Virus record (IMG/VR): IMGVR_UViG_3300037722_001090
Origin: a virus
Lineage: Duplodnaviria; Caudoviricetes
DNA length: 64,000 nt
Reading direction: 5' to 3' (one strand)
Under the pieces are notes generated by a model that was not told the DNA's origin, did no database searches, and was given only the letters and a program-made list of their open reading frames with translations. The first letter of the stretch is position 1; each line of letters opens with the position of its first letter. Made by a program: the position numbers and the translations under genes. Shown here piece by piece: positions 1-63,758 of the stretch.

Positions 1-2
1 TC

Positions 3-3000
3 GGATTAGTAGATCACGCATTAGGTGCTGCAACTATGTCTCCAACTGGTCGTGGACCATTTACTGAGATTCCAATTAAGGCATTTGAAGCTGCGTCATT
101 AGCTTATACAAAACTATCCGATATAACAGGACTAACTGACTGGGCTAAATGGCAAGATAGAGTAGCTCCTGGATCTACAGGCATTGGTATTATGGCTCCT
201 GCAGCAACAGCTACCGGTCTTTACTTTATGGGTGAAAAAATGTATCAGCATGGACCTGACTTTATCGGAGGTACAATAGATAAAGCTGGCAGGAAAATGC
301 TACAGCATCCACTTATGAGGGCTGCAGCTAGGCCTGAAGCGTACAAGGGCGCTTTAGCCCGAGGACCAGTTGAAAATCTATTGTCTTATGTTATTAAGAA
401 TCCAAAGAAAGGAATCTTTGGGTTAGCAATGCTACCATCAATTCCATTTCTACCCGGGTTCTTTGGTTCAGATAAGAACTATGCTGAGAAGAAAGCTGAA
501 TATAAAGGAGAGAAAGAAGTTGCTATTCGTAAATATCGAGGATGGTTACTATCATCTTCTCCTTTTGAGGGCGGAAGAGTAAGATCATGGCGTAGACATT
601 CACTAAATCTTATCGAAAGTGATTTTGAAAACAGAGGCGTTGTCTATCCTTCATTCACAGATCGCTTTATGCATAATGCATCTCTTGGTATGTATAAACC
701 TAATATACTAGAAGACTACCACGGAGATGCACAGCCCGTATATAAATCCTCTCCTTGGGGAACAAACGTACCTCTTGTTGGTCCAATTATAGCAGGAACA
801 ATTGGCAAGCTAATTGGAACCAAAACATATCACACACCAGGAGAGTATGCACCAAGAGAAGTTCAGGAGTATGCTGGTGACGGAGCAAACCATGATCAGG
901 AATCTGGTCTATCTAGAAGTGTAGAGATGGGTACAGTCAAGAAGTTATTTGGTGATGATCAGAATAAAACTGGATACATGATAGGACTACAGGATCCATC
1001 GTCACTTAATTCTTTAGCTTCTAGGTTTGCAGACAGCTTAGGAGACCTATCTGGTTTCCGTGGATTCTCACTACAAACAACGTATGAAAAAATGGCAGGC
1101 AAGAACCTACCAGATAAATATACACCATATGCACAAGATAGTAGCCAAATGTATAGTCCAGCTGAACAGATGTGGCAATACAATCTTGGTGATATTACTG
1201 TAGTCGGTGGCGAGTTTATGCGTCGTATATTACAGAACTCAGAGAAAAAATGGGAAGTTAACGATATTCCCAATGAGTTATTTGGTGTTAGCTGGATTCC
1301 TCAAGCCGATGACCAAAGAGGTACAACTAAAGACTTAACTCACGGGACTACCTTTAATAAAGTAGATATGGGTTGGCTATATGGATCTAGAAAAGGATGG
1401 GAATTCTTATATCCAGGAGAAGCAAAAGGAGACATGGAATCCTATAGTGCTCCTCTTAAAACAGAGATTCTTCAGCAACTAGCTCCTTATTCAGCTAAAT
1501 TTAATGAAGCAGCTAAAGAGACATACGGTCAAGCTATAGGGGGTCAGTTAAGTCCAAAGCAAGAACAAAGATTCTATGAAACACTAGATCAAGTATCACA
1601 AGTAAAACAACAACTATATGCTACAGCTGGTGAGTATTCATTTGCACTTGATACAGAAGCAGAATCTGGTATTGTAGATACTGTACAAGATGATGGTTCT
1701 TTTAGTATGAAAGGTAAAAACTATAGGCTTGCAGGTGTATCTTTACATGAGGCAGATATAAGAGCTAGGCTTTTACAAAAGAACGAGTATAATAGTGCAC
1801 AGGCGCTTGCAGATGATGTAGCATCAATCAGAGAAAGAACTGCTCAAATCATAAGTAAACACTTAGGTCCGGGCAGAGAGGTTAGTTTTAATAAGGCCAC
1901 AGCTACTATGTTACCTTCCGAGACAGAGTCTGGTATAGAAGTTCAAATAGATAGCCTTACAGAGGAACTGTGGAGCGCTGGTGCACCTTTTGCGAACACT
2001 GGCAACCTTGCTTCCCATAATATAGCACAAGACAGAGATGGTATTATGAGCAGGGTATCGGCTGCATATTGGGATGGGCTTACTGCTACTAACTCTTATT
2101 GGAATAAAAAGCTAATATCTAAACGTGACTACTTAGATAATTATACAACTAATCAGGTATATAATAGAGAAGTTAAACTTTGGACTAGACCTATAGAACA
2201 TATTGTTAAGCCATTTCTAGCATCTACAGTTCATAATCTTACAGGCATAGATTTCATACCATCATTCACTAAAGAAAGAAGAGCTAATCAGCAATACTGG
2301 GATGTAGTAAAGTATATAAAATATAAAATGTTATCTGGCAGAGCTAAAGATGAAGGTGACATGGAATCGGCTGCTTTCTTTGAGTCTCAATGGAGAAGCA
2401 CAATGATTGGTGCTGACCCTACAGATAGTAGTATGAAAGACGTACTTAATGCTCTTCCTGTAAATGAAAGACAATATTTTAATAACTTTGCTAATGAACC
2501 GGATCCAGAAAAAAGAAAAGAGATCTTTGGGTATTTACCAGAACAAGCAAAGAGACTTTACTCTAGTATATGGATGAGGAAAGCTGCAGCTGCATCTAAT
2601 GACCAGCAACTACTTGCAAACTGGAGTAAGCTTCAAGAATCTGAAGGATGGGATTTATCTGAAGACGAAGAAGCTGAGTATGCTAATGAAACAGGTGGAC
2701 GTGCCTCTAAGGCTGATTGGGCTAGAGCTAAGTATGTTCAGTCATATGCACAGAAAAGAAACCTTCCTGGAGCAGAATGGTCTGGATGGAATGAGAGCGT
2801 TGACATAAATAACGTTCAATTATTAGCATTACAAGAAGATGGAGAGAACGTACAAGATTACGGATTCTTCGATAGTAATATAAGACAAGCAATTTATGAT
2901 GATTACGCATATGCCGCCGCTACAAGCTACGAATCAATGTCTGTATCAGCTAATGTAATTATGGGCGATATAACACCGATGCTAATGGAAGACTCTGTTA

Positions 3001-3143
3001 TGTCTGCATATGCGACACCGACGTCATCTATGTCACCAATTAGAGAAGTAAATATAGAAACTAATGGCTTTGCAAGAATACTTGATAAGTTAAACAATTT
3101 TGGAAGTGAAATACTAGATGATTATTTTACGGACCCTTACTAA
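3..3143 (+). CDS. Large virion protein in tape-measure position, 5'-truncated by window edge; contains a degenerate SNase-like OB-fold
   Basis: Frame is open from position 3 (GLVDHALGAATM) to TAA 3143; Gly/Ala-rich hydrophobic helices; segment GIVDTVQDDGSF...YRLAGVSLHE...LTEELWSAGA resembles the thermonuclease fold; precedes the hub and baseplate genes. Confidence 0.6.
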   Translation, partial: GLVDHALGAATMSPTGRGPFTEIPIKAFEAASLAYTKLSDITGLTDWAKWQDRVAPGSTGIGIMAPAATATGLYFMGEKMYQHGPDFIGGTIDKAGRKMLQHPLMRAAARPEAYKGALARGPVENLLSYVIKNPKKGIFGLAMLPSIPFLPGFFGSDKNYAEKKAEYKGEKEVAIRKYRGWLLSSSPFEGGRVRSWRRHSLNLIESDFENRGVVYPSFTDRFMHNASLGMYKPNILEDYHGDAQPVYKSSPWGTNVPLVGPIIAGTIGKLIGTKTYHTPGEYAPREVQEYAGDGANHDQESGLSRSVEMGTVKKLFGDDQNKTGYMIGLQDPSSLNSLASRFADSLGDLSGFRGFSLQTTYEKMAGKNLPDKYTPYAQDSSQMYSPAEQMWQYNLGDITVVGGEFMRRILQNSEKKWEVNDIPNELFGVSWIPQADDQRGTTKDLTHGTTFNKVDMGWLYGSRKGWEFLYPGEAKGDMESYSAPLKTEILQQLAPYSAKFNEAAKETYGQAIGGQLSPKQEQRFYETLDQVSQVKQQLYATAGEYSFALDTEAESGIVDTVQDDGSFSMKGKNYRLAGVSLHEADIRARLLQKNEYNSAQALADDVASIRERTAQIISKHLGPGREVSFNKATATMLPSETESGIEVQIDSLTEELWSAGAPFANTGNLASHNIAQDRDGIMSRVSAAYWDGLTATNSYWNKKLISKRDYLDNYTTNQVYNREVKLWTRPIEHIVKPFLASTVHNLTGIDFIPSFTKERRANQQYWDVVKYIKYKMLSGRAKDEGDMESAAFFESQWRSTMIGADPTDSSMKDVLNALPVNERQYFNNFANEPDPEKRKEIFGYLPEQAKRLYSSIWMRKAAAASNDQQLLANWSKLQESEGWDLSEDEEAEYANETGGRASKADWARAKYVQSYAQKRNLPGAEWSGWNESVDINNVQLLALQEDGENVQDYGFFDSNIRQAIYDDYAYAAATSYESMSVSANVIMGDITPMLMEDSVMSAYATPTSSMSPIREVNIETNGFARILDKLNNFGSEILDDYFTDPY

Positions 3144-3156
3144 ACGGAGTTAACAA

Positions 3157-6100
3157 ATGGCAAACAATCCATACTATGAAGAAAATAGCGGCTTTGGTAG
3201 TGTATTAAAAGGTGCATCTTTTGCTGGCGCAGCTGGTGCATCTTATATGGCATATAAGAACCCTGAAGCTACTACCCGTGTATTTAATCGTGTAGTTAAT
3301 TCTGTTGCACCACTAAAAGCACCTGAGCTTAATCCATATCAAAGCAACATAGTTAGTGCTAGAGAGGCAATCTTCAGTACTATGGAAGCCAGAAATATAC
3401 GTAGAGTAGCTTTAGATAAAGATATGCAAGCAAGAGCTTTACAGACAATCGGTAATGTAAATAACTGGGGTACTGTAAGTGCTGTAGGTGCTGGTATAAA
3501 AGGTGGCAAATCTGATTCATTTAAAAGCCTAACTGATATTCTAGACATAGAAGGTAATGAAATAGGGACAAAAATACATAACGCACTAGAGAAGAGATTT
3601 AATTCTAAAATCGATGCTCCTAAATTTAGTGGAACAAGAGGAACCTGGAAGATAGCAGGAGAAGATTTGTCTATTGATTTCTCTAAAAAAGGACTAGATT
3701 CAGGACTAGGAAATTCATGGTTCAAGCGCGTTGGAGAGTCTTATTATGCTTCACCTTATCAGTCTAAAATGGCTAATCGTGGCGGAGGGAAGCTTGGATA
3801 TGATGTAATGAGTCCAAATGAATTTGTATTAAATGTGCTACAAGAAGAAAATGCTGGGAGTGGAAGACTGGCATATGTAGAGAGTCCTACTAAGTTTAGG
3901 AACGCATATGAAAAGGTAATAGGAGAGAAAGTTACTGGACTAAGTGGACATGACGATGCTGTTAAGTATGCTGTTCAGCAAGTACGTAAAGAAATAGAGT
4001 TAGGATCTAATGCTAGTGTTAGCAATGTAAGAACTATGCAAAAGGCTTTAAAGAAAGTATTTAATACAGATACTATGTTTGTAGAAACTGACCCAGTAAA
4101 GCTTGGCTTATTTGGCAGTGAAGTTCGCGTAGAAGAATATTCTAGATATATACTTGGTAATACAGAACCTGAATTTAAAGGTGTAGGTTCAAACCGCGTA
4201 GGCAGAAACATGAATAGTCTTACAGGAGGAAGCGTAAACATAGAAGGTAATGCACTTAAAGTAGCATATAATATTCCTCATGATGCAAGAACTGATAGTT
4301 CTTTAATTAGGATTGTTAATGGTAGTGGCGCTACGTTGAAAAGTAAAAATGCTACATTTATGCAAAAAATGATGTCTCTGTTTGGTGGATATAGGCTTGG
4401 ACAAGATCCTTCATCTGAATTTGCATGGGCTGTTAGACCTACTGTTCTTCCTGTTATTGCGGAAGGAGATAAGTCTATGAAGGGTGCTTTATGGGCAGAT
4501 GATAATACCGTTATTAGAAAAAATGGCACTCAGGGTATTTCTATGGGAAAGGAATATTTCAGAGGAACAGGAACAAAAAGAATTGAAGCACACAGACTTG
4601 AAACATTAAGGCATATGTCTTTTATTGACGACACTAAGATTACTGAAGCTGCTGCTTCAAGCTCAGATTATGTAAAGGGTAAAATATATTCTCAGCAAAA
4701 TAAAGGCATTTATAATATGACAATGGCTCTTAACCCGTTTTCTGAAGAGTCTATTCAAGTAAGTTCAGGTATGAGTAAGCATATGAAAGTTCTTATTCCA
4801 AAAACAGCTACTGTGGACACAATTGCACTTAAAGGAGAAGAATCGTATAGGAGGTCGCTACTTACACTAATGGATGCAAACGGTGTATTAGATAAGGAAT
4901 CATTTACTATAAAAGAAATAATGGAAAGTAAAGCTTTATCAGAAAGAGTTAGTACTGGTCAATCCAAAATTAAGATAGGAAGAGGGACATATCTAGGCAG
5001 AAAGAACATAGGTATGGAAATATCTAATGCTGAAGACTTTTACTCTACATTTGAAAGAGACGGAGAGATTATTAAAGCAAAAGTAGATATGTATATAGAC
5101 AGTACAGACTTTAATCAAATGGTCGAATCAAATCAAAGAATGATGGGTGAAGGACATAAGCATGCAGGAGGAGTTAAATATATAGCTAAGGCCATGGATG
5201 ACCCTGCTAAAGTTGCACTTACTGGTATAAGAGCCCGTGGAGCTTATGCAGTTGGCGATGACGGATTACTTAATAGTTTATATGCAAGTGCAGGACTAGG
5301 TAATAAGCAAGAAGCTACTATTTCTCTTGGTATGTTTAAAAAAACATTCCCTAAGATTTCTAATAACAGCCTTCTTCTTGGTAAAGATTCACCTGAACTA
5401 TTACACTTTACACAATCTGCACTTGGATGGCAATCCTTACAAAGTAGCATGGATATAACATTAAGTAAAAATGCCGCTGATCATTTTGTCGGTAAATACG
5501 TAAATGATGCATCAAAAGTATTAGGCAATCAAGATTATTATACTGGAAGAGGTGCATCTAAAAAGTTTAGCTTTAGTAAGGCTATGCGAGATGGAGCAAT
5601 ATCTTTTACTCAAAGAACAGAATCAGATGCTGCATTTGCACAGCAATATCAAGACACTGTACAGGTGCTTGGTACTGCGCGAAGAGAATGGGGTAATAAT
5701 CGTAAAGTTGCACACATAGAAAGCTTCTCTACGACTAATGCTAAAGATGCTGCTAAAGTTATAGATAATCAAATTGAAGCAATAGACAATATGGGCAAGC
5801 TTGCAAAAGGTGAATATGCTGTAAGGCTATTTAATAAACAGGTAGATGCAAAAGAGCTTGGAGAACAAGCCTTAGTTAGGACAAGAGTATCACAAGGTAG
5901 TAGTGCTGGTCTTGGATCGACAAAAGCACTCACAATGGGTATTCTTGGAGGACTTCAACCTCAGGAACAAAACTGGCTAGCTCTTGGTGGTGAATTTAAT
6001 AAGATGCGTATTTCATGGAGAGATATGTATCACTTTACAGACAAGGCAGATATACTAAGAGATATTTCAGTTAGAAGCTTAACAGATGCAGATACTAGCG

Positions 6101-8646
6101 CAACTATGATTAAGCTAATGAGTGACTCTGCTGTAGGGCATAATGTTACTTCTGCTGTTAATGCATTTGAGAAGAAATATGGTAAAATTCCAAAACTAAA
6201 AAAGACAGAAGAGATTTTGGAAATGATAGGTGGTGATGCCGCTATGGTTCCAGGTGCTATTAGAGATCCTGAATTCTTAGCAACAAAAAGCTTCTTAGGT
6301 AATAAAAAGAATGAGTTCGGTTTTATGGTCGAAATGGGTGAGCGTAATGTTTATATTCCAGGTAGAGATGTTTGGAAAGGATATGCAACTGATGAGGGGA
6401 TGGCTACATTTGATTCTTTATTTGCAGAAACTCATAACTTACTTTTGAATAAAGCTCTAGGATCGAACATACATCAAGATAGAGATGAGTACCAAAATTG
6501 GGTTAAAAGAATAATCAATGAAACAGGAAGCTCAAAAGAAGGACTACAAAGAACAATTTCATTATCTATTGACCATGCAGTTGCTGCAAAACATATAGAA
6601 GATCCATCGTTTATTCATAATAAAATTATGATTGGTGCTATGGAGAGCTGGAAAGGTAATGCAGACAAGAAGTTAATTCCTGGATATGTAGCAAAAGCAG
6701 AAGCTCTAGAAAATACATTTGGTAATATAGCTAAAATCGGAGAAAAAGATTTTAGTTCAAGTATTAAACAGCTTATAACTGACACTAAGACAATAGCTAG
6801 TAGCCCTGGAAGCAGACAGACAATGCAAGAGGTTCTTACCTCACAATATGGTGAAGATCATTTTCTACAAAAGTATGCAAATAGGATGAGTGCAAACATG
6901 GACAAGGAAGGTGTAGCCAGTCTTGTTAAGGATATTACAACGGATCATGTTGCTAGTAGTAAGCTACTTATGAGCAAAATAAAAGAATATGCATCAACAG
7001 GGAATGAGTCTTTATTTGGAGAGATAGACACGCTTGTAGGAGGTGCACATAAGATTTTTGCCGTTAGACATCCTACACTTTATACTGGATCTTATTCAGG
7101 ATTAATAGCTCTTATTGATAGTCAAATTGAAGGAACACAAAAAATAGCAATAGCACACAGAGCTAGTAAAAATATGGCGTCGGACTGGGACGGAGATACA
7201 ATTAACTATGTTGACCTTAGATCTAAACTGGGAAGACAAAAAGCATTGAATCTTATTAATACGGATCAGAAAATTGCATATGGTGTAATGAGTTCTAAAG
7301 TGCAAGACAGAATGACTGGAATTTTAACTGGCAAAGGAACTAATGCTCCATCCGAGGCCCTTGCTTTTTTTAACTCACTAGACTCCCCTGCAGCACTAAA
7401 TACAGTAGCTAAAAATATTTTACATGATGCTCCTGGCTCAACAGCTATTTCATCGTATTTTACTAAAGCAATGACCGGTCAATTTAATATCTCTGCAATG
7501 GAAACAAAAAACTATATAAGAGATTTATCTGATAGTAAAAACTTATCACAAGAGCATATGAAAGAGCTAGGTCACTACTTTGGAGTAATGGCATCTAAGA
7601 ACTCTGAGCAGGAAGTAATCTCAGCTAAGCATGCAGAGACATGGCTTAAGAATATGAACAAAAGTGAAAGTAAGATGAACTATCTTACTAATTTAATAGG
7701 CGCTCAATCTGGACAAGAACAAATAGCGGAGTCTATTAGAGAGCTTGGATCAGTACATCCTATTGCTCAGATGGCAGCAATGAACGCCAAAGGTAAAGAT
7801 AATGAGAAGTTTGCTGGTATGGTTTCTGACTTTATGGATTTTAAGGTAGGATGGAAACAGCTTGAGCAGCCAAGATTCGAAACTATGTGGGAAGGACTAG
7901 GTCTTGAAAAATCTCATGGAGTTAATACCTCAGCAGCTTGGGACATGTACGACTCTTGGTTAAAAGAAGGTGAACATATTTTTGGTAATAAAATGGAATC
8001 TTCTGTTGCCGCTGGTATATCAGAACTCAGCTATTTAGAAGTTACTAAGCAGGCAATGTTTGATAAGAGATCTTCTGCAAGTGAAAGTATAGAGGCCATG
8101 TTTAGCCGTGCATTAGAGTTTATGAAAATGAGCGATAATGATAGGGCTGGAGATGCTGCAATGGGCGTATTAGATAAGCTCGGATATAGGAAAACAGCAC
8201 TACAGATGCTCACTTTACATGAGCAACAATCAAATATGGCACAAGCAACTCGCAAGATAGCTGGCTTTGATACAGTATCTAAAGCAGCACAGTGGATGGT
8301 AGAAAAACCTGTTAGATTAGCTGGAGCTGTAGGTATTGGCTTATTAGGCATGACTGCAATTAACCTACTAAGCGGAGATGGTGGCCTTGAAGATCCAAAT
8401 GATTTACCTAGTGTTAGTAATCCGGCATTTACAGGCGGTGGTGGAAATGGTATGATGAATACACATGGAGTCCAGCCACACGTAGGCGTAAACGCTAATG
8501 TAAACTTATTAACAGACAGTAACGATAATCCACAAAGTGCACTTAGTTACATTTCTAATATGTTTGGCTATAGTCAGGGCAGCGTTGTATCTGTTATGCA
8601 TGATGGTGAAAACCCATACAAAAAAGATATGATGTATTATAATTGA
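3157..8646 (+). CDS. Putative virion-packaged single-chain two-barrel (DPBB) DNA-dependent RNA polymerase, 1829 aa
   Basis: Beta'-like signature AVRHPTLY (7066)...IEG...AIAH...NMASDWDGD (7183-7197) followed by TINYVDLRSKLGRQKALNLI; upstream KEGLQR (6535) switch-2-like motif; candidate beta-barrel lysines GHKHAGGVKY (5158, 5176); GGAG RBS. Confidence 0.8.
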   Translation: MANNPYYEENSGFGSVLKGASFAGAAGASYMAYKNPEATTRVFNRVVNSVAPLKAPELNPYQSNIVSAREAIFSTMEARNIRRVALDKDMQARALQTIGNVNNWGTVSAVGAGIKGGKSDSFKSLTDILDIEGNEIGTKIHNALEKRFNSKIDAPKFSGTRGTWKIAGEDLSIDFSKKGLDSGLGNSWFKRVGESYYASPYQSKMANRGGGKLGYDVMSPNEFVLNVLQEENAGSGRLAYVESPTKFRNAYEKVIGEKVTGLSGHDDAVKYAVQQVRKEIELGSNASVSNVRTMQKALKKVFNTDTMFVETDPVKLGLFGSEVRVEEYSRYILGNTEPEFKGVGSNRVGRNMNSLTGGSVNIEGNALKVAYNIPHDARTDSSLIRIVNGSGATLKSKNATFMQKMMSLFGGYRLGQDPSSEFAWAVRPTVLPVIAEGDKSMKGALWADDNTVIRKNGTQGISMGKEYFRGTGTKRIEAHRLETLRHMSFIDDTKITEAAASSSDYVKGKIYSQQNKGIYNMTMALNPFSEESIQVSSGMSKHMKVLIPKTATVDTIALKGEESYRRSLLTLMDANGVLDKESFTIKEIMESKALSERVSTGQSKIKIGRGTYLGRKNIGMEISNAEDFYSTFERDGEIIKAKVDMYIDSTDFNQMVESNQRMMGEGHKHAGGVKYIAKAMDDPAKVALTGIRARGAYAVGDDGLLNSLYASAGLGNKQEATISLGMFKKTFPKISNNSLLLGKDSPELLHFTQSALGWQSLQSSMDITLSKNAADHFVGKYVNDASKVLGNQDYYTGRGASKKFSFSKAMRDGAISFTQRTESDAAFAQQYQDTVQVLGTARREWGNNRKVAHIESFSTTNAKDAAKVIDNQIEAIDNMGKLAKGEYAVRLFNKQVDAKELGEQALVRTRVSQGSSAGLGSTKALTMGILGGLQPQEQNWLALGGEFNKMRISWRDMYHFTDKADILRDISVRSLTDADTSATMIKLMSDSAVGHNVTSAVNAFEKKYGKIPKLKKTEEILEMIGGDAAMVPGAIRDPEFLATKSFLGNKKNEFGFMVEMGERNVYIPGRDVWKGYATDEGMATFDSLFAETHNLLLNKALGSNIHQDRDEYQNWVKRIINETGSSKEGLQRTISLSIDHAVAAKHIEDPSFIHNKIMIGAMESWKGNADKKLIPGYVAKAEALENTFGNIAKIGEKDFSSSIKQLITDTKTIASSPGSRQTMQEVLTSQYGEDHFLQKYANRMSANMDKEGVASLVKDITTDHVASSKLLMSKIKEYASTGNESLFGEIDTLVGGAHKIFAVRHPTLYTGSYSGLIALIDSQIEGTQKIAIAHRASKNMASDWDGDTINYVDLRSKLGRQKALNLINTDQKIAYGVMSSKVQDRMTGILTGKGTNAPSEALAFFNSLDSPAALNTVAKNILHDAPGSTAISSYFTKAMTGQFNISAMETKNYIRDLSDSKNLSQEHMKELGHYFGVMASKNSEQEVISAKHAETWLKNMNKSESKMNYLTNLIGAQSGQEQIAESIRELGSVHPIAQMAAMNAKGKDNEKFAGMVSDFMDFKVGWKQLEQPRFETMWEGLGLEKSHGVNTSAAWDMYDSWLKEGEHIFGNKMESSVAAGISELSYLEVTKQAMFDKRSSASESIEAMFSRALEFMKMSDNDRAGDAAMGVLDKLGYRKTALQMLTLHEQQSNMAQATRKIAGFDTVSKAAQWMVEKPVRLAGAVGIGLLGMTAINLLSGDGGLEDPNDLPSVSNPAFTGGGGNGMMNTHGVQPHVGVNANVNLLTDSNDNPQSALSYISNMFGYSQGSVVSVMHDGENPYKKDMMYYN

Positions 8647-8653
8647 GGTAGAT

Positions 8654-11600
8654 ATGGCAATTTCTAATAAAGAGTTTATTGATGTGCTTAAAGCAGAAGG
8701 CTTATGGCCACCACAGGCAAATGCTGAAGCAGCATATGGAGCAGTTGAGTTTCCAGTAGGAAAACTTAAAATTGATGGAGATGCCTCTTTTACATCTATT
8801 TATGTAATGGACGGAGATACCATTGAGTTACATAAGCCCGGATATGTATTTAGTACAACAGGAGATCATGGCACAGTACCCGCCGAAGGCATGGATGGCA
8901 TGGCAACCTCTCTTCGTTATTATGGCTTAGATACAAAAGAGACAGCAAAAGAGGGCACAGGTAAAGCTGCAGAGCCATATGCTAATTGGCAAACTAGGGC
9001 AAACTTAGCCTTATTTAAATATGCAGAAAGAACAGGTAAAAATGTTGATGTTACTGGATACAATCAAGATGCTTACAAGAGAACAGTTGCTGCAATAAAT
9101 ATTGATGGTACGGATGTAGCTGATCTCTTTGTACGAAATGGTATATCTGCCGCAGGTACCGCCGCAGAAGCAGGCTTTGTACCTGAAGGGGGGATAACTG
9201 TTCGCTCACTGCAAGAATCAATGAATGAGGCAGCAACTAAAGGCTGGGGTCTATGGAATAAAAATCAAATTTATGATGTCTTAAGAGATGTAAATAAAGA
9301 GACTGAATATCTTGATGGTTATATTAATGATCGATTTGGTAAAGCTAAAAGCATGACAGACGATACTGTTAAGCTTGGAGACGTATATCTTGATATACCT
9401 CCTACACACATAAGTATTAATCAGTTAAGAACATCATATTCTACACCACAATTTGGTGGCGAATCAAAGCCAACATCTACAAGTACAGCGCGAACAACTA
9501 TAAAGCTAAACCTTATTTTTAATGGTGAAGACTCAGTAAACGATGATTTTAAAAGAATCTATTGGCAGTTTATCTATTGTCCAATTAACTTACTGTATTC
9601 AAAAGATATATACGAGAAGGTTGTTTCAGATAATCCTTATATAGCTAGGATGAATACTGCCACAATTAACACTGAAGAATCGTCTTCTTCTAAGTCATCT
9701 TCGTATTTTATCCCTGTAACTATGGATAGTTGGACCGTATATACTATTGAGGGTCATCCAGGGTCTATTGGATGTACAATACAGCTATCTATCTTTAACT
9801 ATTCTGCATACTTTGAAGGTGCAGGTAATGGCGTTGAATACTATACATATAGTGATAATCCAGGAAAGCATGGTAATGCAGTTAGATACACTAAGCACCT
9901 AGAAGAAGCTATTCACCCATATAACCAATATATCATGAAGCACCTCGGTAATAGCATTCAGCACTTTGATGCATCAGATAGTCGCACTCTTATTTTTAAG
10001 GTTGAAGATAATAAATCTAGATTTGAAGGTAAACAAGAAGATATTAATGAGGATGTTTCAGATTTATCTGAATATCTAAAAGTTATACTTGAATCAGAAG
10101 TTGATGAATTAATGGTTAATGGTTCTGTAACTTTTCATAATAACTTTGCATGGTTACCAATTATAGGATATACGCAACCAACAGCACAGTATATTGGTCC
10201 TGGTGAAACCAATATGTCACTAAGTATTAGAACTAAAAACAATAAAACCATATCAGGACTATTAGCAACATTTGGTGAAATGGTTCTTGATAGAACTAAA
10301 CATACATACTATGATGATAGATACTTAGTGTCCAACTCGCTGTCTAGGCTATGTAAGGCTTCTGTTTGTTCACTACGTAATATCTCAATTACAAACGTAG
10401 ATCATCACCCAGGATGGTCCGATATTAATATTCAGCTCTCTAAGTCTTCCTATGCAGATCATCAGGATGAAGTAAACCCAGCTGCAGAATTTGATGAATA
10501 TTTTGGACTACAAAGGTTGATTAAAGCTGCAAATGTAGATGAGGTTATGGAGGCTCTTGAAAGAGAACTTAAACTAGCTGACATGACAGATATATCTCTT
10601 CCTGCAGAAGATGATTTGCTAGGACAAATGTGTATACTCTCTGGTATAATAAATGCACATTCATACATTAGTGATGAAGCATACCTTGGGTACAATGAAA
10701 TACTTTCTAATATACGTGCTTTTAAAGCAACTATTAATGATAAAGACATGAAAGAGCTTGGATTTTCTAAGCCTCTTATGGGAGACATAAAAAGTCTAGA
10801 GGTAAAAGGTACGGACATAATTGATCGTATGTTCATTCAGTCTCTACCTATATCTGTAAAATCTGACCCTAAACAAATGAAAGCAATAGTTGATTTCGAA
10901 ACATACTATAATGCTAAGAAAAAAGCAGGTGTTGTTAATGAATTTGATTCTTTTGAAAGCGCACTTAGAGGAGATAATTCTAAAGAGGGTTTTGAATTAA
11001 GAGCAGAGATGATAGATAGGTATTTACCTCTTGATGAAATGATAGATATGACAGGTACTAAAAATAAAATAGTAGATGTAAATAAACACCTATTTAATGC
11101 CTGGGAAGAGTATTGGGGAGATAGACATACAGTAAGGTCGCTAAGCAGTGTATATATAAAAGATTTATTAGCTAGTGGTGTGGACACATCAGTATATGAT
11201 GAAGAAATGGAAAATATAGTATATAGGATACTTAGATCCATATCTAATGAAGGCATGATGTTAAGTTACCAGAAGGCTTGGAATCCGCTAGCTCTTTCAA
11301 TGGCTCGTGGTCATGCAATTGTTTTTAAGTTTACTGGTACAATATTAGAAGCACAAATAATTAAAGCAGCCCTTAGGGTTGGAGATGAGACATCATCTAT
11401 AATTGGAGAGGCAGCTAGTTTTGGTACGCATGGATCTAAAGCAAGAAAGTTTTTTAGTTTACAAAACAATGTTAAATATCCATCTATTTCAGTAAAGTTA
11501 ACTTGTCATAATAAGGATGTTGCATATAGTGAATATAGCACTAGTATGTCAGAGGCATCAAAAGAGGCATCATGGTCTTTAGCTACTGCGTTTAGAGCTA

Positions 11601-17274: not shown

Positions 17275-18489
17275 ATGGCTACCTACAAAGATAAGCAAGA
17301 CAGAATTTTAAAGGTTATGTCAGAGAGAGCTGGATTTTCTAGCCTAGTACCTGGCACAAAAGGCTATCAACTAGCAGAGGCGTTTGCATATGAACAAATG
17401 TTACAAGAGTCTGAAATTGAAGAGTTTACTAGAAAAAATAGTATCTTAACTGCTAAAAAGCAAGAGCTTGATGATATTGGTGAGAATTTTTTTAACGTTA
17501 AGAGACTTGGAAATATTAAACCTTTTATTACGTCATCAATGAAAGCACTTAAGTTTTACGTTGATACAGCTCAGTCATTTGGCCAAATAAATGTCATAAA
17601 GCAGGCAGGCATTGAAATACCTCAAGACATTATAATCCCAGAAGGTGTAATTATAAGTGGCACAAAAGATGGTATTGATTATAAGTTTAGAGTTTCAAAA
17701 ACAACGATATTACCTAAAGATGATAATGTAGCATACGTGCAAGCAGAGTTAATGCAAGGTCCACTTGCACAGATACCAGCGAACATATTAAAGATGCATA
17801 GTTTTACTAAATATACACAAGCAACAAGTAATATGCTTAAGGTTACAAATCCAGTTCCAGTTATGAATGGAAGGCAATCAGAGAGTGATGATAACTATAG
17901 GTTTAGAGTCTCTAATGCATTAAGTGCATTTCCAAGAACAAACACAACAGCTATACATCAATTACTAACTGAACTTCCAGCTATATCTAACGTATATATA
18001 GAGCCATCATCTAATGGTGGTGGAACATTTACTGTATATGTACAAGGTACAACACCAATTACTGGGGATGAAATAATCCGTGAAGCAGAGATGGTTCTTG
18101 AGCGAGTTATTAGTCCATGGATAGTATCTTATACTGTAGTTAAGCCAAGTTATATTGGTATTCAGGCATCTATAGATATGGTTCTTAGAGATAGTTTTAA
18201 CTCCAATATTACGTCTTTAATATCTCAAAAGGTAACTAATTATCTTGATAACTTTGATGGGGATACATTTTATATAAACTCCATATTAAGTCTTGTACAA
18301 GGGATGCATCAAGATATACTAGATGTATCATTTAACTATGTTAGGGTTTATTCTGGGTCAGAAGATATAAGATCTTATGAGGAATTAGACTTTACCGTAA
18401 ATCCAAACCCCATAATTAGCATTAGTATTAAAGAGAAGTTAATTTCAGAGCCTATCTCTAATCCAATTACATTAACTATAACGGTTTAA
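17275..18489 (+). CDS. Baseplate J-like wedge protein
   Basis: IIIPEGVIISG...YKFRV; VTNPVPVMNGRQSESDDNYRFRV (E-S-D-x-x-Y-R-x-R motif); GTFTVYV. Confidence 0.85.
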   Translation: MATYKDKQDRILKVMSERAGFSSLVPGTKGYQLAEAFAYEQMLQESEIEEFTRKNSILTAKKQELDDIGENFFNVKRLGNIKPFITSSMKALKFYVDTAQSFGQINVIKQAGIEIPQDIIIPEGVIISGTKDGIDYKFRVSKTTILPKDDNVAYVQAELMQGPLAQIPANILKMHSFTKYTQATSNMLKVTNPVPVMNGRQSESDDNYRFRVSNALSAFPRTNTTAIHQLLTELPAISNVYIEPSSNGGGTFTVYVQGTTPITGDEIIREAEMVLERVISPWIVSYTVVKPSYIGIQASIDMVLRDSFNSNITSLISQKVTNYLDNFDGDTFYINSILSLVQGMHQDILDVSFNYVRVYSGSEDIRSYEELDFTVNPNPIISISIKEKLISEPISNPITLTITV

Positions 18490-29051: not shown

Positions 29052-29330
29052 ATGAATAACGATTATTATGTAGAGCAAGACTTTAACTTGGATGCACAGT
29101 TAATTCAACCAAGTATTAAGACACAGGTACTTAATGGTATAAAACAAAGAATTACAGATCAATATTTAAGTACTGAAAACAAAGATATATTAGCTGTATT
29201 AGATGCGCAGACACAGATAATAGAAGATGCATATAAGATAGATATGTATAAGTTCCAATTCAAGCTATTAATTAACATCTTAAATAAAGAGCTTGATAAT
29301 ATAAAAACAATCCTACTATATGAAATGTAA
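29052..29330 (+). CDS. Hypothetical helical protein
   Basis: 92-aa ORF in operon. Confidence 0.4.
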   Translation: MNNDYYVEQDFNLDAQLIQPSIKTQVLNGIKQRITDQYLSTENKDILAVLDAQTQIIEDAYKIDMYKFQFKLLINILNKELDNIKTILLYEM

Positions 29331-30186
29331 TAAAATGATACAGGAATTACTAGAAGATCTATTTAAAAAAACATCTAAACCGCAAAAAGAACATAAGGAC
29401 CGATTCTATCCAACACAATCATCAGTCTCAGTAAGTCACAAGTCTTATAAGAAAGTAGAAGGTAAGTGCTTAAGGGCAGCTTATTATAATTGTATTGCTG
29501 CAGACTCAGAAGATACATTTAGTCTAAATAAAGAAATTATATTTGAGCTAGGTGATTATGTTGAGAAGATGGTGCTAGACAAGCTTGATCGTAAAGGGGT
29601 ACTCGTAAGTAGAGATACGAAGTTCGAGATTAGCACATATAAAATAAGCGGTAAGTTAGATGCTATTATTTTAGATAGTAATGGCAAAAAAGTTGGCGTT
29701 GAAATTAAAAGCATTGGTGGTAATAATAAATATGCAACAAATGCAATCTATGGAAGTCAATGGAATTTACCAGAACCTAAATGGCAGAACTTATTTCAAA
29801 CCTTAGTATACTGTTATGCCTTTCGAGATGAGATAGATAGATTTATATTATTTTATATCAGAAGAGATACAGGTGAAATTAAGGAATTTGAAATTTCTAT
29901 ACTGCCAAAAAAAGGCAAGCTATATCCTGTAATAGACGGTAAGATTGAAGAGAGATATACAGTAAACGATATATTAGATAGATACACTATTCTTAATAGA
30001 TATATAGAGAAAAAAGAAACCCCTCCTAGAGAATTCCAGCATACATACAAAAAAGAACTTATTGATACTTACGTAAAATTTGGTATAATGTCTAAGTACC
30101 AAGCAGATAAATATAAAGAAATACCCTTTGGTGACTTTGAATGCAGATTCTGTAGCTATTCAAAACGCTGCCTAATTGATAAGTGA
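29320..30186 (+). CDS. Cas4-like PD-(D/E)XK exonuclease with 4-Cys cluster
   Basis: N-terminal CLRAAYY, ISGKLDAII, VEIKS, QTLVY, C-terminal CRFCSYSKRC. Confidence 0.85.
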   Translation: MKCNKMIQELLEDLFKKTSKPQKEHKDRFYPTQSSVSVSHKSYKKVEGKCLRAAYYNCIAADSEDTFSLNKEIIFELGDYVEKMVLDKLDRKGVLVSRDTKFEISTYKISGKLDAIILDSNGKKVGVEIKSIGGNNKYATNAIYGSQWNLPEPKWQNLFQTLVYCYAFRDEIDRFILFYIRRDTGEIKEFEISILPKKGKLYPVIDGKIEERYTVNDILDRYTILNRYIEKKETPPREFQHTYKKELIDTYVKFGIMSKYQADKYKEIPFGDFECRFCSYSKRCLIDK

Positions 30187-47210: not shown

Positions 47211-47341
47211 CATTATAGTTCCATATGGTTTAAGTAATTAACAAATCTTGGCTGCTGATTGGCATATCTTTTTAGACTTAGCTTTCCAGCAATTCACAGG
47301 ATTTTCAATTATGCATTACTGCATAATGGCGCTAAACATTA

Positions 47342-48714
47342 ACGCAGGTTATAGCTTTAGGTCTATTGATACCGAGCGCATCTGCAAGACTATTACTAGT
47401 AAGACGCGTAACTGCTTTAATTTGAACTAACCAACTATAAGCTACTTCATCCTGATTTTGTAGTATAGGATGATCACACGTACCAGTTAAGCTAACTCCA
47501 AGTAACCGCTCTTCTTCACAATTATCTTTCCATACTTTTCTCAAGAATCCGAAATCAGTAAGAGTAGACTGCAAGACACCAAGTGTAGTAGCATGGATAG
47601 CCTTAGCCATAAGAGATTCAAGAGTATCATCAGCACGTACAATTATCTCTGAAAGGTTACAGAACTGATTAGGTCTTAGAATAATCTCACCACATGGATT
47701 TACACCATATGAGACATTAGGATCACGACCAAGAGAAGCAGCTGTCTTTTGTAGTCCTTCACGATTAACAATTCCTCGCTCACCATTACCGGACTTCATA
47801 AGTGACATCCACTCTTCCATAAAGATAATCATATCAGGCTTCTCAGTATATGCTACTGAGTTATTAGATAATGCACGATGAGGTTGTAGAATCCAGAATT
47901 CACCATCTTTAGCGCCACGCATTCTCATATCAGAAAGATTAGAAAGACTAATACCAGCACTACGACGAACACCACCAACCACAACACAGTTAGCAATCAT
48001 GCAGCAGATATCATGACATTCAATAGATGTAAGCTTGCGCCCACTTGCTTGCTTAAAGATACGTGTTGTAAACTTCAGTAAATCAATAAGAGGTTCAGGC
48101 CCACTAGCACGACCACCAAAAGTCTTAAGTCGTGAACCCTTCTTACGGATTTTACTTGTATCAACAGCCGGTATAATTCCTTCATAAAGAGCTGAAATAA
48201 ACTTACGATATCCTTCAGCCCAACCAAGCTTACTGTCAGCAAATACAATTGGGTTAAAAACATCAGAGTCTAATACCCTAGACGCATCAAAAAATCCATC
48301 AGGAATTTCTGGCAACTTACTTACATTTTGACGCTCAACACTAAAGCCTGCACCAGTACCATTCATAAGAATATACAAGATTTCACTAAAGGCACGAGGA
48401 TCATCAATAGATGTAAATGCACAGTTATATCCAGCAATATGCTCTCTAGCAAGTGCAGGGCCAGCAGCCCACAATGCACGCATAGAAGGCATAACTTCAA
48501 ATTTAACTACGGCACGAGTGGCAGACATTAATTGACTACGGATATTAGTTTTTACTTCTGGGGCAAGACTCATTTCTTCAATATGGTTAATAAAGAAGTC
48601 ACTATATCTCTGTACAGACTCAGACCAATTCTCTCTGCGAGACTCTTTTTCTAGCCATCGGCTATATGTTCTTTTATAAATAAACTCTTCATACGTACTT
48701 GGGAATACTGACAT
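47342..48714 (-). CDS. nrdJ: Class II ribonucleotide reductase, exon 1
   Basis: RTYSRW, MPSMRALWAAG, YNCAF, NPCGEIILR..FCNLSE, ERLLGVSLTG; GAGGTG RBS before ATG 48714. Confidence 0.92.
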
Positions 48715-48726
48715 TCTACACCTCAA

Positions 48727-59110: not shown

Positions 59111-60219
59111 TTATTTCTCCAAAATATAACTTAAATAATCACTAATAACAATACCAACAGGTAGTTTATTATTAATTTTAAGAGTAGCCTTAATTAACGC
59201 ATCATCATTAGTATTAAACCAGTCAATAAACTCATCAGCTTTTACTTTAGTTTCTAGTATAAATCTTTCATAGTTTGAGCTAATTTCATTAACAATAAAT
59301 GTTTTATCATCATCGTCATCTTTGACTACACCGCTAATAGCAACAACTTTACCTTCTTCAATCATATCCATATGTTTAGAGTAAGATTGAGGGAATACAA
59401 TACATCTTATACTGTCTTCATCTGTAGTCAGTTCAAATGTAGCCATATTAGTTTTTGCTTTAGTTTTCCTAACATCAATAGAAGAAATTGCACCTATAGC
59501 AATAAAACCTTGACCATCAAAATAAGTACTCACTTCTGGGAGTGTACAAACTTTAACTCCACCCATAACCTTAGACGTGTCTATTTGTTTACCTTCAAGA
59601 GGATGTTTTGTAATATAAAAGCCAAGTGTTTCAATTTCATAAGATAAACTATCTTCTATATCATTTTTTATAATTTTACAGTTATCTATATATTTCTCTA
59701 AATCAATATCTTTAACTAAATCAAAGATTGTTTCATACTCAGAAACACTTTTCTGTCTATCCATAAAATCAAGAATATTACGTACACTTTCAAGTGAGCT
59801 TTCTTTATTTATATTTAATGTAGAAAATAATCCAGCCTTAGCGTATTGTTCAAGAATTTTCTTATTTAGACAATCCAAATTACGCATGATAAAGTGACCT
59901 AGGCTTTTATATCCTTTTTTTGTGCGACGCTTTAAAATCTTTCCAGATACAGCTTTGCCTACGCCTTTAACAGCCGCAATACCAAAGATAATACTATCTT
60001 TATCGATTGTAAAATCAACTCCAGATCTATTAATGTCTGGTGCCAAAACCTTAAACCCACGCTTCTTAACCGCACTTATATATCTTCTAATATCACTTGT
60101 CTTATCTGAATCTACAGTTAGTAGAGTTGTATAAAACTCCAACGGATAATAATGTGACAGAAAAGCAGTACGTGCAGAAATAAAAGAGTAGCATATAGCA
60201 TGACTCTTATTGAAACCAT
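59111..60219 (-). CDS. dnaE: DNA polymerase III alpha (C family), exon 3
   Basis: (T)AT GGT TTC AAT AAG AGT CAT = YGFNKSH; YPLEFY; PDINRS; FGIAAVKGVG; EIETLGFYITKHP; OB-fold. Confidence 0.93.
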
Positions 60220-62553: not shown

Positions 62554-62805
62554 CAGGTATTTAAACCTGTCCATAGACTTTCATCTATGACTGGACTATA
62601 TCATTCTGTAGAATAAATTCTACATAGCGGGGTTACACTATAAAATTACTAATATAATGCTCGAGTTTTCTCGATAGTCTCTGAGGCGGAACTTATCGTG
62701 CCTGCTGATTGTCCATTGTAATATCCTTAAAATTTTTACACTTTGGTATTTAAGGCTTTAGGAGGTTCCAGCATATAACCCACTTTTACTTCCCCCATAC
62801 TGTTA

Positions 62806-63758
62806 AGGGAAGTTATATCTGATAATTCATCTACTGTAGTAGGAATTACTTGGCGGACAGCACCTTGAAAGAGGTTTGACTCAAACTGAAAGATACCTGT
62901 ATTATGTCCACTATTAAGTACTTCATAGATACCCTTATCGTTAACATCGATATTTTCTATATCTATTTCTATTCCTCTTAATTCTCTTACTCGATCCACA
63001 GTACCTTTAATTACATCTAAGGTCTTTAGACCAAGCAAGTCCATCTTAAGGCAACCCATAGCTTCAACATCATAATACTCATACTGAGTAAGAATATCAG
63101 CTCCATCTTTCTTAGTAGAAATCATCTGAGGAACATATTCAGTAGTTTTCTTGTCTGTAATAACAAAAGCACATGCATGAACACCAAGAGCCTGGGGAAG
63201 ACCTTCTAGTTTAATAGCTATTTCCCAAATCTTTTTAGCTTCATCATTTTTAACTACAGCTTCTTGAAGTTGCTTATTAGCATCATATGCTTCCATGAGC
63301 TTAATGCCAGGAACATCAGGAATATGTTTAGCAATATCAGCACCAGTTTGAATAGCATATCCAAGAGCACGCTGAGAGCTCCTAACTGCAGCTTTAGCTG
63401 CTAGCGTATTGAATGTCAATACATCACATACTCTGTCATCACCATACTTACCTTTAAGATACTGCTTAACTTCTCCTCGCATCTCTTTAGAGAAGTCAAT
63501 ATCAAAGTCAGCATATGAGCCTTGAGATGCAATCTTTAATGACTTAACAGGCTTATCATCCATAAAACCCAGCACCCAATGTAAAAGAGAGTTAACGCTA
63601 GTATCTACATCTCCTGTTAGCTTATCTGAAATGCCCTGTAGTATAACATTTCGCACTTCAGAGTATAGCTGTTTGTGTTCTAATTCAGAAAGCTCATTAA
63701 ATCTATCCTTAGATCTAACAAGCTTAGTAAAATCATTATCTATGTGCCACGTTACCAT
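62806..63758 (-). CDS. dnaE: DNA polymerase III alpha, exon 1 (short N-terminus, no PHP domain)
   Basis: ADFDIDF catalytic motif, TFNTLAAKAAVR, GVHACAFVI, LKMDLLGLKTL, GIFQFES; AAAGGG RBS before ATG 63758. Confidence 0.9.

Follow-up and report, generated by a model that had tools for sequence, protein, structure and literature searches.

With an injected RNA polymerase (RNAP), a phage can begin its programme independently of the host enzyme; such polymerases also affect how sensitive the phage is to inhibition of the rifampicin type and to the defences of the host. To our knowledge, this strategy is followed by few phages, the injected families being only those of N4, the phiKZ-like phages, the crAss-like phages and P23-45, and it is not known from the protein family or the tail type described here. 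The crAss-like phages are podoviruses, in which the polymerase gp66 is a capsid cargo protein, and YonO is not known to us to be packaged. A precedent in the tail module is gp96 of Thermus phage P23-45, a virion two-barrel RNAP that is fused to the tape measure protein (Chaban et al. 2024, PMC10770324) and for which delivery with the tail contents to transcribe the pre-early genes has been shown. The two-barrel superfamily also includes RNA-dependent and DNA polymerases (PMC9508822, PMC7824862), and a comparative survey of jumbo phages states that those outside two groups encode no RNAP of their own (PMC7824862). Here we analyse a stretch of 64,000 nucleotides from a virus of the Caudoviricetes (IMG/VR record IMGVR_UViG_3300037722_001090), referred to as the window, in which the open reading frame (ORF) 3157..8646 (+) is open throughout, carries a GGAG Shine-Dalgarno sequence 8 nt 5′ of its ATG and encodes a protein of 1829 aa, P0001. 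We propose, with a probability of roughly 0.62, that P0001 is a single-polypeptide, DNA-dependent two-barrel RNAP, which is packaged in the virion, ejected and transcribes the first phage genes.

P0001 carries the catalytic barrel of two-barrel RNA polymerases

An exhaustive HMMER search with residues 630-1829 of P0001 against 1.84 billion cluster representatives revealed a family of 45 cluster representatives (42 at an E-value (E) ≤ 1e-10), all of which are uncharacterised and known from metagenomes only; its members are mostly 1650-1960 aa long and align end to end. Conservation was counted on an alignment of 29 full-length divergent members with a mean identity to P0001 of about 20%, in which only 20 of the 1829 columns are invariant. 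Half of these 20 columns form a polymerase signature (R1304, P1306, D1343, D1345, G1346, D1347, K1437, G1441, Q1485 and K1491), while G614, K685, R694, K743, E937 and G944 are further invariant residues upstream of it. The signature includes the metal loop DWDGD, the sole DxDxD in P0001, whose D, D, G and D are kept in 29/29 members and are preceded by A or G in 27/29, a TK..TG motif, in which both T residues are found in 28/29, and a Q-x-x-I-S-S-K-H motif with S1489 in 27/29 and H1492 in 20/29.

A profile of the family core was searched against all PDB sequences (hmmsearch) and matched best the phiKZ non-virion RNAP subunit gp55 (E = 0.0024); three bacterial β′ sequences, aligned over RxP...NADxDGD, are among the other five matches (E = 0.036-0.89; Staphylococcus aureus, 0.036). 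Comparison of the core alignment with E. coli RpoC (hhalign) gave a single match, aligning residues 1296-1356 of P0001 with β′ 417-473 (E = 0.0023). This alignment, obtained independently, is identical to the one that a previous reading of the sequence alone (the sequence-only reading) had made by eye with the β′ catalytic barrel.

The fold points to the same class of proteins. Residues 560-1620 were modelled with AlphaFold2 from the alignment of 29 sequences (mean predicted local distance difference test score (pLDDT) 79.6, predicted template modelling score 0.76); the model is a globular alpha/beta core of 1,061 residues, in which the strands of the catalytic barrel lie at 739-744, 754-762, 770-773 and 789-794 (model numbering). 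The best 50 Foldseek matches in the PDB are all RNAP largest subunits (bacterial β′, AR9, Pol I and plastid) with E-values of about 2e-4 to 2e-3 and low template modelling scores (TM-scores) of 0.07-0.14, and the top 10 matches in a VIA structure search of 48,161 chains are likewise RNAP largest subunits. The closest matches of the core are thus DNA-dependent β′ subunits and not RNA-dependent RNA polymerases. The 50-residue helix that carries TK..TG is found at the expected position of the bridge helix, and the β′ alignments run on to 929-936 and 1250. Several of them stop at model residues 927-937 facing β′ 929-936 (e.g. 6rh3_D, model 437..932 to chain 26..936), and because the β′ alignments end there we place Q1485...H1492 at the trigger loop.

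From these results we conclude that P0001 is a real homologue of two-barrel RNAPs, whose catalytic barrel is intact and conserved throughout the family, and, judging from the conserved active-site residues and the fold, it very likely functions as an RNAP-type nucleotidyl transferase.

What the sequence-only reading had proposed for the polymerase core is in part supported by these data. A check of the translation located its ORF and all motifs that it quoted, including K668 and K674, and the three aspartates which it took to be Mg-binding (D1343, D1345, D1347) are intact within a DxDGD that is conserved in 29/29 homologues. Its suggestion that MTGQFN and QEVISAKH correspond to the bridge helix and the trigger loop is supported by TK..TG lying on the long helix and Q...KH at β′ 929-936, both of which are family-conserved. 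Two further assignments have to be given up: K668 and K674, considered to be the lysines of the β barrel, are K in only 5/29 and 10/29 members, the conserved basic residues upstream being K685, R694 and K743, and KEGLQR, considered to be switch-2, is not conserved either (K in 14/29, G in 17/29). The expectation that automatic annotation would overlook the polymerase was justified, since the Pfam and PHROG libraries do not recognise P0001: scans of the protein against both gave nothing relevant, and a Pfam scan of the core regions of the 29 members gave no RNAP family. No match was obtained with phmmer of P0001 against PDB sequences or with tblastn of P0001, P0035 and P0043 against 50,697 phage records (INPHARED); a word-index protein search with P0001 returned only the protein itself, a scan of IMG/VR for relatives of P0001 nothing, and an ESM Atlas feature search one unnamed cluster (0.82), which is uninformative.

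A candidate second barrel

Two-barrel enzymes need a partner for the catalytic barrel, and in the superfamily this second barrel supplies two conserved basic residues (PMC7824862), which are K979 and K987 in Rpb2 (PMC9508822). In a separate model of residues 600-1000 (pLDDT 76.4), the order strand-strand-helix-strand occurs twice at 683-770, with K685 in strand 1, R694 at strand 2 and K743 ahead of the second helix. Of the 48,161 chains, the one that it matches best in structure is Pol I A135, in its barrel region, and the second subunits of African swine fever virus, vaccinia virus and Pol III are also listed. A structural alignment to QDE-1 starts with residue 681 opposite QDE-1 residue 732; if it is ungapped, K685 would lie opposite Q736, as judged from the ends of the aligned ranges only, and Q736 is the QDE-1 position of Rpb2 K979 (PMC9508822). 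Residues ~683-770 may form the partner barrel, for which the structural support is weak: a profile of this part found only noise in the PDB (MurA, E > 1), its model gave nothing significant with Foldseek against the PDB and the AFDB clusters, and E. coli RpoB was not matched by hhalign. Of the pair of double-psi barrels foreseen in the sequence-only reading, the β′-type barrel is established by sequence and fold, and the second one is so far a candidate with the appropriate succession of strands and helices.

Comparison with described polymerases

P23-45 gp96 and P0001 have in common that they are single-chain two-barrel RNAPs in the tail module, at the position of the tape measure, and that outside the DxDGD region they are sequence orphans. 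They differ in their build: gp96 is a tape-measure fusion of 5,002 residues in a phage with a non-contractile tail, whereas P0001 is a separate protein of 1,829 residues, encoded in a contractile-tail module and flanked by two giant neighbours. Indeed, P0001 is not fused to a tape measure, as it has its own stop codon and the next gene is in another frame, with no consistent frame in the relatives; the 230 residues behind the core are also too few for a tape measure. Moreover, gp96 has been described as flat and clampless, whereas P0001 aligns with the N-terminal, clamp-side part of β′. No sequence similarity between gp96 and P0001 was detectable, and gp96 is absent among the structural matches listed. 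While delivery was shown for gp96, it is proposed for P0001.

The best profile and structure matches to P0001 are the split β′ subunits of phiKZ (gp55, PDB 7OGP/8QUE) and AR9 (PDB 7S00) and the β′ subunits of multisubunit enzymes. With these P0001 shares the RxP...NADxDGD barrel, a helical N-terminal region before it and a bridge helix followed by a trigger loop after it. In contrast to multisubunit RNAPs, P0001 would carry both barrels on one chain without separate β, α and ω partners, it is encoded among tail genes, and no SBHM or flap-type insert is evident in its small candidate β-type barrel. The structural scores of the QDE-1/RDR/YonO clade and of the crAss-like virion RNAP are below those of β′, and gp66 of the crAss-like phage phi14:2 is not among the matches listed for the P0001 model.

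In BFVD, the best matches of the model are unannotated giant phage proteins (an unnamed entry and proteins of Acinetobacter phage ME3, an uncultured siphovirus ('minor tail protein') and Microcystis phage MaMV-DC), followed by RNAP subunits of jumbo phages, giant viruses, poxviruses and a nudivirus and by the uncharacterised P23-45 protein A7XX94. The entries A0A172Q021 (Acinetobacter phage vB_AbaM_ME3), A0A075BUT7 (MaMV-DC) and A0A8S5SD80 ('minor tail protein') match the polymerase core with E-values of 9.9e-6 to 8.5e-4. More two-barrel polymerases may thus be hidden among these giant proteins; the jumbo-phage group of ME3 is said to be without an RNAP of its own (PMC7824862).

P0001 is encoded in a conserved tail module

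The P0001 gene is the second of three consecutive giant ORFs on the + strand, which are separated by gaps of 13 and 7 nt (Table 1). The upstream giant, cut by the edge of the window, measures 1961-2114 aa in relatives. The downstream giant carries an N-terminal staphylococcal-nuclease domain (residues 87-202) as well as a lysin-like region and hydrophobic segments at 1686-1708, 2084-2128 and 2358-2384, which makes it a candidate injected nuclease/lysin. It is followed by small genes and then by a gpJ-like baseplate gene, from which we deduce a tail module of the contractile type. The P0001 gene is tightly packed between giant genes of the tail module, ahead of the baseplate genes, in a late structural block.

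The order [~130 aa][~190 aa][~2000-aa giant][~1800-aa polymerase][2500-3100-aa lysin-domain giant][three small genes][gpJ-like] recurs on four other contigs with distant family members, including contigs of 167 kb and 401 kb. On the latter, genes for a tail sheath (phrog_16991, E = 1.7e-17) and tube-like proteins lie upstream of the giants, so that the contractile-tailed lineage assumed in the sequence-only reading is supported by the gpJ-like gene in the window as well as by sheath and tube in a syntenic relative. That reading had also named the neighbours as the gene in tape-measure position and the hub and had raised the question of whether homologues in related genomes have such genes beside them. 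The slot is indeed conserved on the four other contigs; the flanking genes, though, are homologues of gp145 and gp147 of Bacillus phage 0305phi8-36 and not tape measure and hub.

Phage 0305phi8-36 is informative for the whole module, as its tail genes (gp139-gp151) are homologous gene by gene to those of the window and its relative; the replication genes of the window resemble it distantly. According to the annotation of its record, gp145, gp146 and the baseplate proteins including gp151 were found in virions by mass spectrometry. P0001 occupies the exact slot of gp146, a virion protein of 2,537 aa annotated as 'hypothetical tape measure protein'. A polymerase core within gp145, gp146 or gp147 was searched for with the family profiles (hmmsearch) and a DxDxD scan, both of which were negative; 0305phi8-36 is reported to have only a YonO-like polymerase, encoded elsewhere in its genome (PMC7824862).

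Two other ideas about the giant genes were discarded: all-against-all blastp found no C-terminal or packaging module shared by the three giants, and a conserved programmed frameshift fusing the polymerase to the next giant was rejected, as the frame offsets are inconsistent between relatives. In the relative ENA ERZ25038502 NODE_2 (401,713 bp), which may represent either a megaphage or a prophage-bearing host genome, the upstream giant (gp145 homologue, 2114 aa, at 3645-9989 of the piece of this contig analysed) contains a REase_MTES_1575 domain (E = 2e-24, residues 1243-1335); the giant trio therefore tends to carry nucleic-acid enzymes.

Outside the core, P0001 has a Gly/Ala-rich, mildly hydrophobic stretch near residues 12-33 and a hydrophobic C-terminal helix, the position of which is kept across the family. 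The C-terminal tail behind this helix is the best-conserved stretch of the entire family, and it is a reasonable guess that it serves as a signal for virion incorporation or membrane docking.

Table 1 Features of P0001 and of the surrounding tail module. Positions refer to the window and residues to P0001; the last four lines give genes of the syntenic 401-kb relative with their counterparts in phage 0305phi8-36.
Feature	Position (nt)	Residues	Strand	Basis or match
Upstream giant gene, C-terminal 1046 aa, cut by window edge	3..3143		+	0305phi8-36 gp145 homologue, E 1.7e-21
P0001	3157..8646	1-1829	+	
N-terminal region	3157..4836	1-560	+	family-conserved patches (consensus NxPYxxD, FxGT, DPNTxxLxxLxD)
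Candidate β-type (second) double-psi barrel	5203..5466	683-770	+	strand-strand-helix-strand twice; invariant K685, R694, K743
β′-like module	6136..7857	~994-1567	+	structural alignment: E. coli β′ 24-1250, phiKZ gp55 7-460
KEGLQR	6535	1127	+	motif scan of translation
Catalytic β′-type double-psi barrel	7048..7260	1298-1368	+	invariant R1304-x-P1306 and metal loop
IFAVRHPTLY	7054	1300	+	motif scan of translation
KIAIAH		1329	+	motif scan of translation
DWDGD	7183..7197	1343-1347	+	predicted Mg-binding triad D1343/D1345/D1347
Bridge-helix-like long helix	7387..7539	1411-1461	+	model helix 852-902; T1436-K1437-x-x-T1440-G1441
MTGQFN	7471	1439	+	motif scan of translation
Trigger-loop-like Q1485-EVISA-K1491-H1492	7609..7632	1485-1492	+	conservation and structural alignment ends
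QEVISAKH	7609	1485	+	motif scan of translation
Predicted transmembrane/hydrophobic C-terminal helix	8311..8376	1719-1740	+	Kyte-Doolittle 1.73, 19-residue window
C-terminal tail	8377..8643		+	GDGTPxxxNDLPSVNNPSF ... LLTD ... S-V-R-x-D-G-x-N-P-Y ... M-x-Y
Downstream giant gene, 2471 aa	8654..16069		+	SNase (Pfam, 1.2e-5), phrog_20474 4e-30; 0305phi8-36 gp147 ('endolysin') homologue, E 1e-13
Baseplate wedge / P2 gpJ/gp6-like gene	17275..18489		+	phrog_6 E 4.1e-23; 0305phi8-36 gp151 E 1.9e-13
Sheath				0305phi8-36 gp139, E 7.6e-13
Tube				0305phi8-36 gp140, E 2e-27
Tube paralogue				0305phi8-36 gp141, E 1.2e-12
550-aa gene				0305phi8-36 gp142, E 2.8e-07

Proposed function and alternative explanations

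In the reading that we favour, the giant trio belongs to a lineage of jumbo myophages related to 0305phi8-36 and is flanked by tail-tube/chaperone genes on one side and by baseplate genes on the other, and the P0001 gene would share its transcript with the late genes for tail and baseplate. Owing to this late-operon position and to the conserved slot in the trio, P0001 would become part of the virion and would be ejected together with the DNA, most likely alongside tail-lumen or ejection proteins, which the conserved C-terminal hydrophobic helix and tail could aid. In the cell, the injected enzyme would transcribe the first phage genes without the host polymerase. Its β′-like module would provide the catalytic double-psi barrel with the Mg loop, followed by the bridge-helix-like helix and the trigger-loop-like Q...KH, while K685, R694 and K743 of the partner barrel would hold the RNA 3′ end and the phosphates of the incoming nucleotide. 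Taking together the late-operon position, the strictly conserved slot among virion genes, the signal-like C-terminal tail and the precedent of P23-45 gp96 (PMC10770324), P0001 is probably carried in the virion and injected to start transcription.

Several observations weigh against this interpretation. The evidence for packaging, ejection and activity is indirect, and the lumen of a tail tube offers little room for a folded polymerase core of ~1000 residues. Moreover, gp146 of 0305phi8-36 shows no similarity to P0001 and contains no DxDxD, so that the mass-spectrometry evidence carries over to P0001 by gene slot only. Within the family, H1492 is substituted in 9/29 members.

P0001 could also be an active two-barrel RNAP that is made late and acts in the cell, in late transcription or other RNA synthesis, without being packaged, its site in the tail module being accidental. 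The catalytic evidence is equal for such an enzyme, and the homologous slot of 0305phi8-36 holds an unrelated protein, which is why the P0001 gene may have reached this place by insertion or by an exchange of genes. We nevertheless regard this as unlikely, since the slot between the gp145- and gp147-like giants is strict on five contigs with polymerase identities down to ~19-22%, and since a soluble cytoplasmic polymerase would have no need of the conserved C-terminal hydrophobic helix and tail. In addition, a polymerase first made together with the tail proteins would come too late for most of the infection cycle, and the late-expressed phage polymerases known to us, those of N4 and the crAss-like phages, the phiKZ virion RNAP and P23-45 gp96, are packaged (see also PMC10770324).

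Less probable still is a structural tail-lumen or tape-measure-type ejection protein with a fold derived from an RNAP, which would make no transcripts or would catalyse another nucleotidyl transfer, for example priming, synthesis on an RNA template, or DNA synthesis of the kind found in archaeal PolD. The annotation of the slot in 0305phi8-36, a C-terminal hydrophobic segment like that of many tape measures, the weakly supported second barrel and the presence of RNA-dependent and DNA polymerases within the superfamily (PMC9508822, PMC7824862) would all be compatible with this explanation. P0001 shares the slot of gp146 without similarity to it, and its modelled core is globular alpha/beta.

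That a chance motif in an unrelated giant protein coincides with an artefactual fold match of a low-information model is hardly credible: the DxDGD alone is weak evidence, as a D-x-D-G-D is expected by chance about 0.03 times in a protein with the length and composition of P0001, the model is based on just 29 sequences and the TM-scores are low, but the motif gains its meaning from being invariant in 29 homologues and from the matches to RpoC and phiKZ gp55, and hmmsearch, hhalign and two structure search programs agree on one 60-residue stretch and one protein class, with all of the Foldseek top 50 and the VIA top 10 being RNAP largest subunits.

Implications

With P23-45 gp96, a virion two-barrel RNAP of the tail module had been described before; in the papers searched, we found no description of the P0001 family. 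What is new in P0001 is its sequence family, the context of a contractile tail, its existence as a stand-alone protein and an architecture nearest to multisubunit β′. If it is recognised as a polymerase, a giant gene that is conserved among a number of uncultured jumbo phages would have to be re-annotated, and accounts of how two-barrel polymerases evolved would gain a β′-like fused enzyme; P0001 could also be the source of a compact polymerase that consists of a single chain and has a promoter specificity of its own. Tentatively, one may imagine that a contractile jumbo lineage has put a cellular-type RNAP in the tape-measure slot, delivers it through or with the tail beside nuclease- and lysin-bearing giants and thereby switches on a second, YonO-like phage polymerase, resulting in a two-polymerase cascade independent of the host. 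If true, myoviruses outside the phiKZ group would thereby have their first example of this kind, and the injection of large folded enzymes by the tail route would be widespread. Recognition of P0001 as a polymerase also raises the mechanical question of how a core of ~1000 residues leaves via a contractile tail.

Other features of the window

No tRNA genes were found in the window. A gene for a Cas4/PD-(D/E)xK-type exonuclease (29320-30186 (+); phrog_1706, 6.8e-20) is located amid tail and fibre genes. DNA polymerase III alpha is split into the ORFs 59111-60142 (-) and 62736-63758 (-), the NTPase/finger part and the HHH/OB part being separated by about 2.6 kb that contain other ORFs, including one on the opposite strand, and the ribonucleotide reductase ORF 47332-48726 (-) comprises N-terminal pieces only. 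The split polymerase and the partial reductase suggest that genes are interrupted by introns, inteins or homing elements. At ~45,200, a strand switch and a change in the sign of the GC skew separate the structural block on the + strand from a replication block on the - strand, which comprises ribonucleotide reductase, RusA, a primase-helicase, FEN, a RecA-like protein and DNA polymerase III alpha.

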